Positions 4,820-17,922 of a stretch of 64,000 nt of DNA are shown piece by piece. The translations under genes and the position numbers were made by a program. Source of the DNA: an uncultured Thermoplasmata archaeon (GTDB lineage Archaea > Thermoplasmatota > Thermoplasmata > Lutacidiplasmatales > UBA184); NCBI GenBank assembly GCA_963749235.1, contig CAVVLV010000001.1, positions 1,083,039-1,147,038 of the forward strand, in the 5' to 3' direction. Numbering within the stretch: position 1 is the first letter of the stretch; each line of letters opens with the position of its first letter. The notes below the pieces were generated by a model. The model was not told where the DNA came from. It worked only from the letters and a program-made list of their open reading frames with translations, and did no database searches.

Positions 4820-5165
4820 GCTCCCAGAAAGGGGAAGTCAACGATAGCGGTTCCGCTTCAGGAGAGGGTCTTCCGGAGGTCACCGAACGTGACCGTTGCC
4901 CGTGCGTCCGGGGGATGCCTCGGGGACCCCTTCGGTCGCTCGATGAACGCCTTTACCCTTCGTGAACCGGTGGAGTATGCGCGCTTGAGCCGAACGAGCT
5001 GCCGGAGCGGAAGCGTCCTCGGTCCCCGACCACCGGAACCGACCGCCCCACCCAAGCTGGCCGAGCCGTTCCTCCCCCGTACGAGCCGGACCGCCACGTC
5101 CCTCGGGATGGGCGTATCCTGCTCGGGGACCGCGAGGCCGAAATAGACCGGTACCATCCCTCCTT

Positions 5166-13545: not shown

Positions 13546-13872
13546 ATGGTGGACGAGCTTACCCCCGAGGAGGTCGCCGAAAAGATGAGGGCACGGCCCT
13601 CCGAATTGGTCCTCCTCGACGTGCGGGAGCCCTGGGAACGGGGGCTCGCGGTCATCGAACCCTCGCTTCACATTCCGATGGGAGAGGTCCCCACGCGAGT
13701 CGCCGAACTGCCGAAGGATCGTCTGATCGTGGTGTACTGCCACGGCGGCATGCGCTCCGCCCTCATCGCCGGGTACCTGGAGGGCCACGGCTTCGCGTCA
13801 GTGGCGAACCTCTCGGGCGGGATCGATGCCTGGTCGACGGACGTCGATCCGAAGGTCCCGAGATACAGCTGA
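13546..13872 (+). CDS. rhodanese-domain sulfurtransferase
   Basis: The ATG at 13546 inside ORF 13345..13872 gives MVDELTPEEV...LLDVREPWE... The active-site loop is VVYCHGGMRSA. Confidence 0.85.
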   Translation: MVDELTPEEVAEKMRARPSELVLLDVREPWERGLAVIEPSLHIPMGEVPTRVAELPKDRLIVVYCHGGMRSALIAGYLEGHGFASVANLSGGIDAWSTDVDPKVPRYS

Positions 13873-14107
13873 CGACCCATTCGTCGTTCCACCGGTGGGG
13901 TTCCCGGGAGCGTGCCCCCAGAGCCGAGAAGTGGCACGAGAGACGAAGGCGAGCCATCCCATCGCTCTCGCCGGGGTCGGCGCGTCGCGCCCGTTCCGAC
14001 CAACCCATACTCGTGGCCCGCCACCTCTCCATGACCGGTCGGACCCGATGGGGCGAAATGGATCGGTCTCGCGAGAGGAGCCTCGTGGCTCACGGGGAGC
14101 TCCTGAC

Positions 14108-15415
14108 ATGACGAACCCTTATGCTGACTACCGGCGTGGTTTCTCCACCGGGATGACGGAGTTCAAGGAATCCGGGCGGATTCGAAGACGACTGGCTTGG
14201 CCCCGACTCCTTCCCCCCGCCCGACTCCTTTGGGTCTCCTTGGCCGTTCTGGGCGGCTACGGGGTCTTCGCCCTACACGGGCTCGGATACTCCCCCCTAC
14301 TGGTCCTGCCGTTGATCGCCGCCCTCGCCGACCTCGGTTTCCAGGCCGCGCGGTTTCCCCGACTCCGATTCCCGGACGCCGCGCTCGCCTCGGGTCTCTT
14401 CCTCGGATTGGTTTTCCCCCCTACCGTCTCGCTCGTCCTCGCGGGGGCCGCGACCTTCGCCGCGATCGGGGTCCGGCATGCCCTCCGATTCGACGGTCAT
14501 CCCCTCCTCAACCCCGCCGTCTCGGGCGTCGTGCTCGCGGCCCTCGCCTTCGGCCTCGCTCCGGCATGGTGGGTCGCGATCGGCCCGGTCGGTGAGTACC
14601 TGGTGGTCGCGTTGGGTCTGTTGATCCTGGTCCGCAGCGCTCGCGGCTGGCGCATCCCGGCGGGCTTCCTCATTGCGTACGGGCTTGCGGCGGCCGCCGC
14701 GCAGCTCCTCGTCCACGCGACCCTCGACACGAACCTGCTCTGGCTCACCATCATCGACCCGGCCGTGGTCTTCTTCGGGCTGTACATGGTCACGGAACCC
14801 CGCACCGCCCCCTCCAATCCGGTCTTCCAGGGGCTCTACGGCGGGGCGGTCGGAGTGGGGGCGATTACCTTCTCGCTCTACCTCCCGTCCCTCGGGGTCC
14901 TGGTCGCCCTCCTCCTCGCCAACGCGGGCGTCGCCGCCGGGCGGGCGGCCCACTCCTACGGGGTTCGCCACCCCCGTCCGTCCGCTTCGAAGATCTCTCG
15001 AAAGTCCCGGAACGCCCCGACGGGTCTTTCCCGTTGGCCGATCCCCGTGCGGGTCGGGGCCGTATTCTTGGTCCTGGTGGTTCTCATCGGTGCGGCCGCC
15101 CTCTCTCCCAACGCCTACCCGCAACCCATCCTCGCGCCGGGCGGCGGGGGCGGGGGGGGCGGCGGAGGAGGCGGTGGCGGCGGAGGGGCCCCGAACTGCG
15201 CCCACGACAACTCGGCCATCTCCGCGAGCACGCTCTCCCAGCTACACCATATGCTGGGTCCGTCGGTCATACTGTCCGACAACCCGAGCACCGGGGTGGT
15301 CGTCTTCTACGACCCGGTGAACCAACTCACCGTCACCGAGTCGGACCTGTACGAGGACTTTGGTTATGCCGAGTTCAACGGGGACGACTACGCCGTGAGC
15401 GGCTGCCATCCGTAA
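14108..15415 (+). CDS. polytopic membrane protein (weak RnfD/NqrB-like core) with a poly-Gly linker and a C-terminal soluble domain
   Basis: The ATG at 14108 lies inside ORF 13826..15415. About 8-9 hydrophobic helices include ...FFGLYMVTEPRTAP... These are followed by 16 consecutive Gly and a ~75-aa Cys-flanked domain (APNCAHD...AVSGCHP). Confidence 0.55.
   Translation: MTNPYADYRRGFSTGMTEFKESGRIRRRLAWPRLLPPARLLWVSLAVLGGYGVFALHGLGYSPLLVLPLIAALADLGFQAARFPRLRFPDAALASGLFLGLVFPPTVSLVLAGAATFAAIGVRHALRFDGHPLLNPAVSGVVLAALAFGLAPAWWVAIGPVGEYLVVALGLLILVRSARGWRIPAGFLIAYGLAAAAAQLLVHATLDTNLLWLTIIDPAVVFFGLYMVTEPRTAPSNPVFQGLYGGAVGVGAITFSLYLPSLGVLVALLLANAGVAAGRAAHSYGVRHPRPSASKISRKSRNAPTGLSRWPIPVRVGAVFLVLVVLIGAAALSPNAYPQPILAPGGGGGGGGGGGGGGGGAPNCAHDNSAISASTLSQLHHMLGPSVILSDNPSTGVVVFYDPVNQLTVTESDLYEDFGYAEFNGDDYAVSGCHP
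15140..15187 (+). repeat. run of 16 consecutive glycine codons (GGN)16, including a G8 homopolymer at 15152-15159
   Basis: Read directly from the sequence: ggc ggc ggg ggc ggg ggg ggc ggc gga gga ggc ggt ggc ggc gga ggg, in frame with the 14108 ORF. Confidence 0.9.
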
Positions 15416-15866
15416 CCGCGCGGGGACCTCGTTTCGGGCTCAAGGGACCCGCCGGGCTCGGGGAGGATGCGTCCTCCTCCGCGACAGCCGGCTCGATAGC
15501 CGGGGTACGTACTCGGGCATCCGACCGGGGCGCGGCTCCCGTACCCGCTCCACCGGGCCGGTCGTACAGTTCCAAGGTCGTCAGGTACCCGTTCATCTTC
15601 CAGTACGTGTCCAGGAACTCCTGCCCGCGGACGGTGACGTCGAACACCGGCCGCCCATCGACCTCCTCGCTCTCGAGAAGGCCCAGCGCCAGGAGACGGT
15701 CCATCAGGATGCGTAGCCGGTCCACCGGCATGCCGGCACCGTAGGAGACCCGGGTGATCCGGGCGCCGCCGTGATAGCGCTTCACGACCTCGAGGACGGT
15801 TGCATACAGGTCGGTCGCCTCCCGCCGACGGCCGCCGGAGTTGGGCCCGCTCCGATCGGGGGTCAT
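15375..15866 (-). CDS. winged helix-turn-helix DNA-binding protein (HTH_45/DUF4364-like)
   Basis: ORF 15375..15866 contains ...LYATVLEVVKRYHGGARITRVSYGAGMPVDRLRILMDRLLALGLLESEEVDGRPVFDVTVRGQEFL... The C-terminal ~70 aa are low-complexity and overlap the convergent gene's end, so the true 3' end is uncertain. Confidence 0.6.
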   Translation of the reverse strand: MTPDRSGPNSGGRRREATDLYATVLEVVKRYHGGARITRVSYGAGMPVDRLRILMDRLLALGLLESEEVDGRPVFDVTVRGQEFLDTYWKMNGYLTTLELYDRPGGAGTGAAPRSDARVRTPAIEPAVAEEDASSPSPAGPLSPKRGPRAVTDGSRSRRSRPR

Positions 15867-15878
15867 TCCATCCCCCGG

Positions 15879-17093
15879 TCAGAGCGGGAAGGGCGGAAGA
15901 GCCGCCACCTTCTGCGGGCTCTTCACCCGGGCGCCCCGGTCGAGGGTCAGGGTTCGGGTGTAGACGACCTCGTCCGCGACGGCCCCTTCGCGGAGGTGCA
16001 CCTCGCCGCCCACGATCTTGCGAGCCTCGCAGTCTCGGTCCAGGTCGATGACGTCCCCGTAGATGTCCTCGACCTTCGCCTTTCGTTCGAGTTCGACCCG
16101 TCCCCCGACCAGCGGGCCCGAGGCGCGGGATCGGTGGCGCAATCGGATCGACGCCGCCTTGAGCCCCGCCCGGGTGGCGACCACACCGCCGATCTCGGCT
16201 TGGCCCGTCAGGATCGCCCGTTCAGCCTCGAACTTTCCGCCGATCTCGAGACGGTCCCCGTGCAGGCTGCCGCGGATCTCCGCCTTGCCGCCGACCTCCA
16301 GGAATCCCGTGAGGTCGAGCGAGCCGCCGACGGAGAACCGTCCGCCGATATGGACGTCACGTCCCTTCCCATTCCCCCGGATGTCCCCCAGGCCGCCGAC
16401 CTCGAGGACGTCAAACGTCAGGTCCTTGCTCGCGGTCAAGACCCCGCCCACGTCGATGGACTTTCCGGTTCCGTTGTCGCGAAACTCGGCGAACCCGCCG
16501 ACCTCGAAATCCCCGAACGTGACCGGGCCCTCGGCCCGGAACTTCCCCCCGACATCGATCTTGTGACGGACCTCTCCGCCTCCGATGCGGACGAGCCCCC
16601 CGACCTCCAGGTCGTCGAGGGAGACCCCCGCGAGCTCCACCGAACCCCCGGCCTCCACCGAGCGGGCCTCGAGTTTGCCGGCGAGTCGGAATTTTCCGCC
16701 GATGGACACCGTGGTCGCAGTGAGGGTCGAGCGTCCGTCGAGGATCCCGCCGACCTCCAGGTCCTCCGTCACCGCCGGTCCGAGCAGGGTCAGCTTCCGG
16801 TCCACGTCGACCGAACGGGCCCGGAAGAGCCCTCCCACCTCCAGCTCGCCGGAATCGGTGCGGACCGAGTCCGCGACCGTGAGGCTGCCGCCGACCCGGA
16901 CCCGGCCGTCCTCGGAGTCCCACGCGTGGCATTCGAGGTCGCCGAGTACCTCGACGTTTCCGCGGAACCGGGCGGTCCCGGTAACGCGGATCGTGCCGTC
17001 GGCTTCGATGGTCGAGTCGTGGTCGACTCGGAGGTCACCGTCCACCGTGCCGAGTTTCACCCGGCTCCCCCGCGGAACGTTCGTGTCGCTCAT
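15879..17093 (-). CDS. bactofilin-like / polymer-forming beta-helix repeat protein
   Basis: ORF 15879..17093 (404 aa) is almost entirely short beta-strand repeats punctuated by (E/D)(V/I)GG turns: LEVGGLF, LEVGGIL, VSIGGKF, VEAGGSV, LEVGGLV, IDVGGKF, FEVGGFA, IDVGGVL, LEVGGLG, VHIGGRF, LEVGGKA, LEIGGKF, AEIGGVV. Confidence 0.6.
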   Translation of the reverse strand: MSDTNVPRGSRVKLGTVDGDLRVDHDSTIEADGTIRVTGTARFRGNVEVLGDLECHAWDSEDGRVRVGGSLTVADSVRTDSGELEVGGLFRARSVDVDRKLTLLGPAVTEDLEVGGILDGRSTLTATTVSIGGKFRLAGKLEARSVEAGGSVELAGVSLDDLEVGGLVRIGGGEVRHKIDVGGKFRAEGPVTFGDFEVGGFAEFRDNGTGKSIDVGGVLTASKDLTFDVLEVGGLGDIRGNGKGRDVHIGGRFSVGGSLDLTGFLEVGGKAEIRGSLHGDRLEIGGKFEAERAILTGQAEIGGVVATRAGLKAASIRLRHRSRASGPLVGGRVELERKAKVEDIYGDVIDLDRDCEARKIVGGEVHLREGAVADEVVYTRTLTLDRGARVKSPQKVAALPPFPL

Positions 17094-17139
17094 CGATAGG
17101 ACAAGGGTACCCCCATTCTATACGGCTAGGTCACGAGGC

Positions 17140-17922
17140 GTGAGTATCCGACGATACCCCCCGGGGACCTTTAGCCGTGTTCCGCTCCCGGCGGTCGTGC
17201 CGGACGCCCTCGAGGAGATCCGCCGAGAAGTGGTCGCCTGCACCCGCTGCCCTCGGTTGGTCACCTACCGGGCTCGGGTCGCGCAGGAGCGGAAGCGAGA
17301 GTTTCGCGGAGAGGAGTATTGGGGTCGGGGCGTGCCCGGGTTCGGCGACCCCCGCGCTCGATTGGTCGTGGTCGGCCTCGCTCCGGCCGCGCACGGGTCG
17401 AACCGCACGGGTCGGGTCTTCACGGGCGACCGTTCCGCCGCCTTTCTGGTACGGGGGTTCTACGAGGCCGGGTTCGCGAACCAACCGACATCCCTCCGGC
17501 GCGGGGATGGGTTGCACTACTCCGACCTCTACTTGACCGCCGCGGTCCGGTGCGCTCCCCCCGGGAACCGGCCCACTCCCGAGGAACGGAGGCACTGTCA
17601 GCCGTATCTCGAGCGGGAGCTACGGGCGCTACCGGAGACCCGCGCGATCCTGGCCCTGGGGGGGTTCGCGTGGGACGCCCTCCGGGAGATCGTGCCCGAC
17701 GTCTACGGGGGTCCTTCCCCCACCGCCGCCTTTGGGCACGGGGCGTGCGCCCCAACCGGTCCCGGAGGACCGCTGTTGTGGGCCTCGTACCACCCGAGCC
17801 CCCAGAACACGAACACCGGAAAGCTCACGCTCCCCATGCTGGTGGGATTGTTGCGTCGGATCCGGGAATCGTACGCCGGCGATCGTCCGGGGTCGCCGTC
17901 GCGATCCGCAGGGAAGAGATGA
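17140..17922 (+). CDS. udg: uracil-DNA glycosylase, family 4/5 (UdgB-like, Fe-S)
   Basis: Shares a frame with ORF 16585..17922, whose first part is antisense to the bactofilin-like gene. Motifs: CTRCPRL, GLAPAAHGSNRTGRVFTGD, HPSPQN. The start is GTG at 17140, about 17 nt after the TATA-like TTCTATAC (17116-17123); GTG at 17197 is an alternative. Confidence 0.8.
   Translation: MSIRRYPPGTFSRVPLPAVVPDALEEIRREVVACTRCPRLVTYRARVAQERKREFRGEEYWGRGVPGFGDPRARLVVVGLAPAAHGSNRTGRVFTGDRSAAFLVRGFYEAGFANQPTSLRRGDGLHYSDLYLTAAVRCAPPGNRPTPEERRHCQPYLERELRALPETRAILALGGFAWDALREIVPDVYGGPSPTAAFGHGACAPTGPGGPLLWASYHPSPQNTNTGKLTLPMLVGLLRRIRESYAGDRPGSPSRSAGKR

Follow-up and report, generated by a model that had tools for sequence, protein, structure and literature searches.

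In a 64,000-nucleotide stretch of the genome of an uncultured Thermoplasmata archaeon (assembly GCA_963749235.1, contig CAVVLV010000001.1; hereafter, the window), two adjacent genes on the minus strand encode a 404-residue bactofilin-like β-solenoid and a small winged-helix protein. With moderate confidence, we interpret them as a two-gene operon, probably self-regulated, that joins a long bactofilin of a previously undescribed form to a regulator of its own, a winged helix of Sso10a type. Bacterial bactofilins have been studied in depth, and work on archaeal ones has been confined to the halofilins of haloarchaea. Our literature search found no paper on bactofilins in Thermoplasmata, Bathyarchaeia or Nitrososphaerota, nor on the family described here. 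The locus is a small module, well suited to testing, from uncultured archaea that are abundant in soil; it comprises a very long tail-less solenoid, a dedicated winged-helix protein and a 13-bp candidate operator, and its precise DNA site and protein pair are open to in vitro tests. Nothing known is overturned by these data; their value lies in a new, well-delimited family. An original prediction, made from the nucleotide sequence of the window, had placed the two genes in an operon, and the two open reading frames (ORFs; 15879..17093 and 15375..15866), their strand and their 12-nt spacing were found exactly as it described.

The 404-residue protein is strongly repetitive. It contains 18 x[VIA]GG motifs, 10 of which have the strict form (E/D)(V/I)GG; the predicted "more than a dozen" copies hold for the relaxed motif and not for the strict one. 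Across core residues 106-309, which comprise 12 consecutive windings, the GG-to-GG period is 17 residues. The spacing is exactly 17 residues for nine GG pairs, whereas 5000 shuffled sequences averaged 0.27 such pairs and never had more than 4. Bactofilin (PF04519) is the sole Pfam family above its curated cut-off in this protein (30.4 bits versus a gathering cut-off of 27.9, E 4.8e-7), and of 50 aligned relatives, 49 also match it at E <= 1e-3, with 3.1e-16 as the best value. When a profile of the family was compared with the Protein Data Bank (PDB), it matched the bactofilins BacA (2n3d, E 8.9e-4) and TtBac (6ria, E 4.4e-3); the same profile also matched a phage tail fiber (9cuy_g) at E 3e-7 but with a bias of 22 bits. 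The remaining Pfam matches of the 404-residue protein (adhesin-like domains, DUF5649 and DUF7305) were all sub-threshold, an NCBIfam scan gave no match, and neither database holds a model specific to this family. On these sequence grounds, we assign the protein to the bactofilin superfamily, in agreement with the predicted bactofilin-like identity.

The prediction had also named non-polymerising β-helix families to which the protein might belong instead, and matches to these were all below threshold. A search for Hexapep gave no match, GlmU reached only E 0.065, and LbH_EIF2B was detected in 4 of 50 relatives. Moreover, the period of 17 residues differs from the 18-residue turn of left-handed hexapeptide-repeat acyltransferases, which places the protein outside that class. 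A defense-system or viral origin was rejected, as PADLOC returned no match and the only PHROG match was a weak one to a tail fiber (phrog_4549, E 3e-5). No signal peptide or transmembrane segment was found in the 404-residue sequence, and its polar N-terminus (MSDTNVPRGS) carries no membrane-targeting sequence; the protein is therefore likely to be cytoplasmic. The acidic residue found two positions before each GG raised the idea of a DNA mimic, which is unlikely given an isoelectric point (pI) of 5.5 and the Lys or Arg that often comes after the GG.

A word-indexed search yielded 66 relatives of 380-450 amino acids (aa) that align end to end with 31-56% identity. Their source labels are Thermoplasmata, Thaumarchaeota/Nitrososphaerota or Bathyarchaeia, and many carry the JGI name "CcmA (bactofilin family)". 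An exhaustive HMMER scan of 1.84 billion representative sequences gave 182 proteins at E <= 1e-30, about 70-80 of them full-length (380-450 aa) and the remainder fragments and a few giant repeat proteins. Conservation within the family is highest at the Gly turns, in a central block (GGGxIxGxIxVGGKF) and at the two termini, including a C-terminal motif (PPxKVxxLPxPPL); nearly all invariant columns are Gly. The distribution is patchy: in a sample of 401 genomes of the phylum, full-length orthologues occurred only in the genus of the window (all 6 genomes listed) and in one other genus (2 genomes).

Repeats of this kind also occur in proteins of other sizes. Six giant proteins of 1500-4500 aa (P0150, P0165, P0171, P0180, P0184 and P0188) contain up to 22 stretches that match the family profile, with E values from 1e-40 to 1e-54. 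Very large proteins, presumably located at the surface, thus employ the 17-residue xVGG repeat as well. At the other extreme, the genome of the window has a shorter bactofilin-like paralogue (G000:C2:238599-239099; locus L007, 1408-1938, minus strand), an ORF of 176 aa and possibly longer that matches the family profile at positions 218-360. Many other genomes of the phylum (L015-L029) have comparable open frames, with lengths of about 230-330 aa and in one case 629 aa, which may correspond to the 13-winding group typified by BacE/F.

The structure of the 404-residue protein was predicted with AlphaFold2 (AF2) from the family alignment. The model is all-β, with a pLDDT score (for predicted local distance difference test) of 97.3 and a predicted template modeling (pTM) score of 0.88. 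DSSP assigned no helix across the 404 residues, and the model has neither disordered tails nor any segment with pLDDT below 50. The strand pattern holds the 17-residue period from about residue 4 to residue 395, from which we estimate roughly 21-23 windings in what is modeled as one continuous rod of roughly 10 nm. The protein is thus about 3.5 times longer than the canonical bactofilin core and lacks flanking tails, which bears out the predicted length of several bactofilin domains. The C-terminal Pro-rich motif was also modeled at high confidence.

Canonical bactofilins have six windings and disordered tails, whereas BacE/F of Bacillus have 13 windings and group with some archaeal proteins (PMC11459167). 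HalA of Haloferax volcanii consists of two six-winding domains joined head to head via an α-helical hairpin, again with disordered tails (PMC11459167). The modeled architecture of the family described here is unlike all of these types, and with about 21-23 windings it would lengthen the range known for bactofilin-type solenoids, hitherto 6-13. With BacA of Caulobacter (2n3d) and TtBac of Thermus (6ria) it shares the winding of about 17 residues, the Gly turns and the hydrophobic inward-facing residues; however, these canonical proteins have about 6 windings in about 100 aa, with tails and usually N-terminal membrane targeting, whereas the 404-residue solenoid is tail-less and its ends are structured and conserved. 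Like HalA, it is an archaeal, apparently cytoplasmic and diverged member of the superfamily that is longer than the canonical domain. Unlike HalA, its model is uninterrupted and free of helix, so that it does not have the HalA architecture, and no dedicated winged-helix partner has been reported for HalA.

The partner gene encodes a protein of the HTH_45 family (PF14947, 26.3 bits versus a cut-off of 25.5), and it is the sole match to this family above the cut-off in the genome. The AF2 topology (three helices, a β-hairpin wing and a long C-terminal helix) likewise agrees with the winged helix that had been predicted. A profile of five partner orthologues matched Sso10a-2 (4hw0, E 2.2e-6) and Sso10a (1r7j, E 0.012), and Foldseek retrieved 4hw0, 1r7j and AspA (4rs8) with target-normalised template modeling (TM) scores of 0.70-0.77 (0.70-0.74 for 4hw0 and 1r7j). 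Sequence identity to the Sso10a and AspA structures is 17-23%. The partner scores 24.6 bits against the NCBIfam model Sso10a_fam (NF053610), far under its cut-off of 60; it is therefore a distant relative, not an Sso10a orthologue, and lies outside this narrow family. It shares the winged helix and the long C-terminal helix with Sso10a and Sso10a-2 of Sulfolobus and with AspA of pNOB8 (4rs8, 5k5o); however, those known proteins bind chromatin or centromeres generically, and their genes have no solenoid gene as a partner. Pfam detected no DUF4004 in the partner.

The conserved core of the partner contains two signatures, RITRxSYGxGxPxDR and EFLDxYWKMxG, and across lineages it is better conserved than the solenoid (43-59% versus 32-41% identity). 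In the window, the core is followed by a Pro/Ala/Ser/Arg-rich tail of 58 aa (pI 11.6), the coding sequence of which overlaps by 41 nt the 3' end of a convergent membrane-protein gene (to 15415). The tail is missing from orthologues, and the same-genus proteins in L009 and L012 stop shortly past the core. It may be a mere ORF extension allowed by the high G+C content, which is about 68% in the window.

The association of the two genes was examined in 80 Thermoplasmata loci obtained from a search with the winged-helix protein, with one genome per species. A full solenoid gene lies directly upstream on the same strand in 76 of the 80 loci; three others have a partial solenoid match (two of these at contig ends), and one has no room for the gene. 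The pairing is thus present in 79 of 79 Thermoplasmata genomes where room allowed a test. Synteny in Thermoplasmata is fixed more widely, with a divergent uracil-DNA glycosylase (UDG) gene upstream in 75 of 80 loci and a rhodanese gene in 75 of 80 (downstream in 66), and independent support for the pairing therefore comes from loci of other lineages. On metagenomic contigs with otherwise unrelated neighbors, the gene immediately after the solenoid gene is the HTH_45 gene in L001/2, L003/4, L005, L031, L033 and L034/35, and in L032 the winged-helix gene is upstream of the solenoid gene with one small ORF between them. In total, the pairing was seen in 6 of 7 loci of unrelated context, at least one of which is bathyarchaeal. 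In its genomic context, the solenoid thus appears to be an obligate partner of one Sso10a-type winged-helix protein, and the adjacency on which the predicted operon depended is conserved in this survey of archaeal loci. The exceptions include L013 and L014, two divergent, AT-rich orthologue loci that have no winged-helix gene beside the solenoid gene.

Other arrangements of the gene pair were also considered. A 433-aa protein in which PF04519 and PF14947 are joined (P0017) was rejected as a Rosetta-stone fusion, since it is an entry of a read catalogue only and has no contig. Its cluster at 90% identity includes two mates, P0212 and P0213 ("SRC" entries), with frameshifted tails, and on the genuine contigs of the cluster the two genes are separate. 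Domain fusions seen only in that read catalogue should be compared with contigs before use. In the window itself, the solenoid gene ends with a TGA codon (15879-15881) and the ATG of the partner follows the spacer at 15866, so that both genes are in one frame (TGA plus four codons). Programmed read-through was rejected because this common frame is not kept in L008, L010 and L011.

A third conserved element lies in the promoter. We aligned the 75 nt 5' of the solenoid ATG across 77 loci that have otherwise diverged, with protein identity down to 41%. These loci have a fixed layout: (G/C)TCAC-N5-GTGAC-CTA, a (C/G)TATAG- box, about 23 nt and the ATG. The exact palindrome TCAC-N5-GTGA is present in 74 of the 77 Thermoplasmata loci, always 48-51 nt before the ATG. 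In the window it extends from 50 to 38 nt before the ATG, directly adjoining the region of the transcription factor B recognition element (BRE) and TATA box. We regard it as a candidate operator of the solenoid operon. Since the TATA box is about 23-30 nt from the ATG, a leaderless or near-leaderless mRNA is implied by the sequence. Coordinates of the gene pair and its promoter elements are given in Table 1.

Table 1. The gene pair and its promoter elements (positions are those of the window)
Feature	Position	Strand	Basis
Long bactofilin-like β-solenoid gene, 404 aa	15879..17093	-	ORF, PF04519, AF2, 17-residue periodicity, family alignment
Winged-helix partner gene, 163 aa	15375..15866	-	ORF, PF14947
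Intercistronic spacer, 12 nt, CCGGGGGATGGA, containing a Shine-Dalgarno-like, purine-rich segment ahead of the partner's ATG	15867..15878	-	Sequence
Winged-helix core, aa 1-105, Sso10a/HTH_45 type	15552..15866	-	PF14947, Sso10a-2 profile match, AF2 topology, Foldseek, alignment
Basic tail of the winged-helix protein, 58 aa, genome-specific	15375..15551	-	Alignment versus orthologues
TATA-like box GTATAGAA, ~23-30 nt 5' of the ATG at 17093	17116..17123	-	Sequence; (C/G)TATAG- kept in 77 aligned loci
Candidate operator palindrome TCAC-gcctc-GTGA, extended CTCAC-N5-GTGACCTA	17131..17143	.	74/77 Thermoplasmata loci and other loci

The palindrome is also found upstream of the solenoid gene in four other lineages, where the UDG gene is absent: in L005 (at -50, followed by CTTTTAGG), L030 (-63), L032 (-320) and L033 (-438). 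In addition, L032 has a second, imperfect copy beside a TATA-like box, and L003 has a copy with one mismatch. In the 78.7 kb of sequence from the seven loci of non-Thermoplasmata type there are four exact palindromes versus 1.1 expected from composition, and all four are within 450 nt 5' of a solenoid gene, a region that makes up 4% of the sequence (P ~3e-6). The palindrome is absent from L013 and L014, where the winged-helix gene is missing too.

Elsewhere in the genome the palindrome is not enriched. Its core occurs 14 times in 1.8 Mb, compared with 10-14 occurrences at control spacings that are out of phase with codon periodicity. The extended half-site GTGAC[CG]TA has 68 genomic copies, and only the copy at this operon precedes a TATA box; the palindrome is therefore not a general promoter element. 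A large regulon was likewise rejected, as the 14 genomic sites are at the control level. One conserved site at the operon's own promoter, with chance-level occurrence elsewhere, points first to a dedicated local regulator.

The left half-site of the palindrome contains a GTG (17140) that, in the window, is in frame with the divergent UDG gene, for which GTG 17197 is an alternative start. We rejected 17140 as a UDG start served by a shared bidirectional TATA box, since the GTG is in frame with an ORF of UDG length in only 29 of 74 loci, as expected by chance; coding constraint therefore fails to explain the conservation of the palindrome. More plausibly, UDG starts at 17197. A UDG that begins there has 241 aa, in keeping with the 237 aa annotated in L001, and a separate TATA-like sequence (CCTTTAGC) lies about 24 nt upstream of this start.

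A second exact TCAC-N5-GTGA with a promoter-like context is located outside the window in the same genome (G000:C1:655202-655214). The palindrome is followed by 8 nt, CCTTTACC, 24 nt and an ATG, with CTTTAC between the palindrome and the ATG, and the gene encodes a 90-aa protein with two predicted transmembrane segments. The site is weakly conserved: L127 and L132 carry ACAC-N5-GTGAC[CG]TA and a TATA-like box, and the promoters of other same-genus orthologues have nothing similar. This site may be a second target of the regulator.

Taken together, we favor the following model for the operon. A dimer of the winged-helix protein would bind the palindrome, whose half-sites are 9 bp apart from center to center and would thus lie on one face of the DNA, and would set the transcription of a leaderless bicistronic mRNA. 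In Thermoplasmata, the regulator could possibly act on the divergent UDG gene as well. The β-solenoid would form a cytoplasmic rod of about 10 nm that may stack end to end in the manner of canonical bactofilins, which polymerise independently of nucleotides into non-polar filaments. The rod may also bind the regulator and feed back on its own synthesis, by analogy with BacR and BacE/F.

This analogy comes from Bacillus subtilis. The BacR gene accompanies those of the bactofilins BacE/F; its product is a DNA-binding protein that controls the operon, and the bactofilins bind BacR and block its DNA binding (PMC13649987). BacE/BacF (YhbE/YhbF) and BacR (YhbD) likewise combine longer-than-canonical bactofilins with a small dimeric DNA-binding protein in one operon, and we consider them the best functional analogy for the archaeal pair, although the two systems are not homologous. 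The archaeal locus has one solenoid gene with an estimated 21-23 windings, whereas Bacillus has two genes of 13 windings each. The archaeal regulator is an Sso10a/HTH_45 winged helix encoded downstream, whereas BacR is a DUF4004 protein encoded upstream; the archaeal pair is thus not a BacE/F-BacR system. A specific palindromic site is evident at the archaeal operon, and none was found for BacR. Because the hosts are wall-less or S-layer archaea, no link to cell-wall stress is expected. The archaeal family suggests that the coupling of a bactofilin to its own DNA-binding regulator, shown only recently in Bacillus, arose independently in archaea with another regulator fold.

A related theme is known for another cytoskeletal family. 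Darnell et al. (2020) reportedly described in Halobacteria a cdrS-ftsZ2 operon in which a small ribbon-helix-helix regulator is co-transcribed with a cytoskeletal gene. The archaeal theme is the same, i.e., a gene of cytoskeletal type in an operon with a small dedicated DNA-binding regulator, but the families differ: tubulin/FtsZ and ribbon-helix-helix there, a bactofilin-like protein and a winged helix in the window.

Several observations weigh against the self-regulated operon proposed here. In L032 and L033 the palindromes are 320 and 438 nt upstream, away from the gene's own TATA box; L030 keeps the palindrome and has no adjoining winged-helix gene on its 21-kb contig; and L031 and L034 have the gene pair but only a different or degenerate palindrome. 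A factor other than the winged-helix protein could bind the site. Foldseek comparison of the solenoid model with the PDB gave nothing significant, bactofilins included, and the conserved C-terminal Pro-rich motif may, in the model, cap the end of the β-helix, which would disfavor end-to-end polymerisation. The fusion P0017, which would have linked the two proteins, is probably an artefact of assembly or deletion, located at a short stretch of ED(I/V)YA similarity. Finally, an AF2 model of the in-frame read-through product (TGA read as W, table 4) contained two folded domains with no sign of docking, a linker with pLDDT below 50 and a pTM of 0.75 versus 0.88 for the solenoid, although this was a weak test, with a mostly unpaired alignment and a monomeric regulator.

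A separate observation concerns the promoter of L031. At about 4940-4960, a perfect palindrome (AGTGTC-TAC-GACACT) directly precedes a TATA-like sequence (CTTTAATAG). Possibly this is an operator that has diverged, varying together with the winged-helix protein of the locus, which is itself more divergent and has 78 aa.

Other interpretations of the gene pair must be considered. The original prediction suggested nucleoid or positional scaffolding. In such a scheme, the solenoid would polymerise into a filament or rod to which DNA is tethered by the winged-helix protein as an adaptor, either at the palindrome as a centromere-like site or in bulk, as in PadC/ParB on BacNOP in Myxococcus or AspA on pNOB8. 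The fold of the partner, with its similarity to the chromatin proteins Sso10a and Sso10a-2 and to the centromere-binding AspA (TM 0.70-0.77), fits such a role, since DNA is known to be bent, bridged or coated by proteins of the Sso10a type (PMC4941522); the gene pairing is tight and crosses phyla; and SegB orthologues of Metallosphaera join a β-helix to a DNA-binding segregation protein (PMC12284271). However, no conserved ParA/SegA-type ATPase was found in the neighborhoods of the compared loci, the solenoid has neither a membrane-targeting sequence nor a tail, and the read-through model showed no docking. The palindrome, at 14 copies within the range of its controls, is fixed in position relative to the TATA box, as expected for a promoter operator. 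As the one conserved site is at the operon's own promoter and occurrences elsewhere are at the chance level, nothing specific favors scaffolding, and we consider it possible but unlikely. The solenoid could also be an unlinked, co-transcribed passenger, with the winged-helix protein or another factor serving as an ordinary local regulator of the neighbors, i.e., of UDG in Thermoplasmata or, elsewhere, of an ABC-2 transporter. Regulators of the small HTH_45 type are common in archaea, the palindrome of Thermoplasmata loci is flanked by the solenoid gene on one side and by the divergent UDG gene (present in 75 of 80) on the other, and an ABC-2 transporter adjoins the pair in L001, L003 and L005. 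Yet only the pairing of solenoid and winged helix is kept across lineages, while UDG and the ABC transporter are not; the palindrome stays with the solenoid gene where UDG is absent, and the window has no ABC transporter at this position, all of which makes a passenger quite improbable.

A further alternative concerns the solenoid itself, which could be a monomeric rod of another kind, such as a fiber- or adhesin-like protein, a left-handed helix of the acyltransferase type or a protein-binding platform, rather than a bactofilin-like polymer. The weak, sub-threshold matches to adhesin-like and LbH families, to tail fibers (9cuy_g and phrog_4549) and to giant repeat proteins of 2000-4500 aa, together with the well-ordered, conserved ends, with a C-terminus that is possibly capped, are all in line with this idea. 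Bactofilin is nevertheless the only family above a curated threshold and matches 49 of 50 members, the period is 17 and not the hexapeptide 18, no signal peptide or transmembrane segment is present, and there is neither a defense-system match nor a significant one to GlmU (E 0.065). We therefore give this alternative the least credence.

The favored operon can also be extended to a bolder hypothesis. The rigid rod of about 10 nm, or a filament of such rods, would be a new cytoskeletal element of Thermoplasmata, Bathyarchaeia and Nitrososphaerota-type lineages that physically captures its own regulator, the latter switching partners between the polymer and the operator DNA, such that the state of assembly sets its own transcription and possibly tethers or organises DNA. 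This hypothesis is speculative, and we regard it as distinctly unlikely.

The genome in which the window is located has 1.8 Mb in two contigs, and its close relatives are from soil and peat metagenomes, all labeled "Thermoplasmata archaeon". Among the neighbors of the gene pair, genes for an ABC ATPase and an ABC-2 permease recur in other loci. They are directly upstream of the solenoid gene and on the same strand in two loci of non-Thermoplasmata type (L003, 3070-4927; L005, 3119-4947), and convergent downstream in the Thermoplasmata locus L001 (6609-8341). The ABC pair is found in about 11-19 of the 80 Thermoplasmata loci and is absent from the window. It is possible that the ABC pair and the gene pair represent an ancestral four-gene module or a recurrent association.

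In the window, the gene downstream of the pair (13826-15415, plus strand) codes for a polytopic membrane protein that contains a long run of Gly and weakly matches an RnfD/NqrB-like family (PF03116, 35.5 bits). In related genomes, this position is held by the ABC-2 transporter, or the genes run straight to rhodanese; a homologue of the membrane protein was found here in 1 of the 80 related loci.

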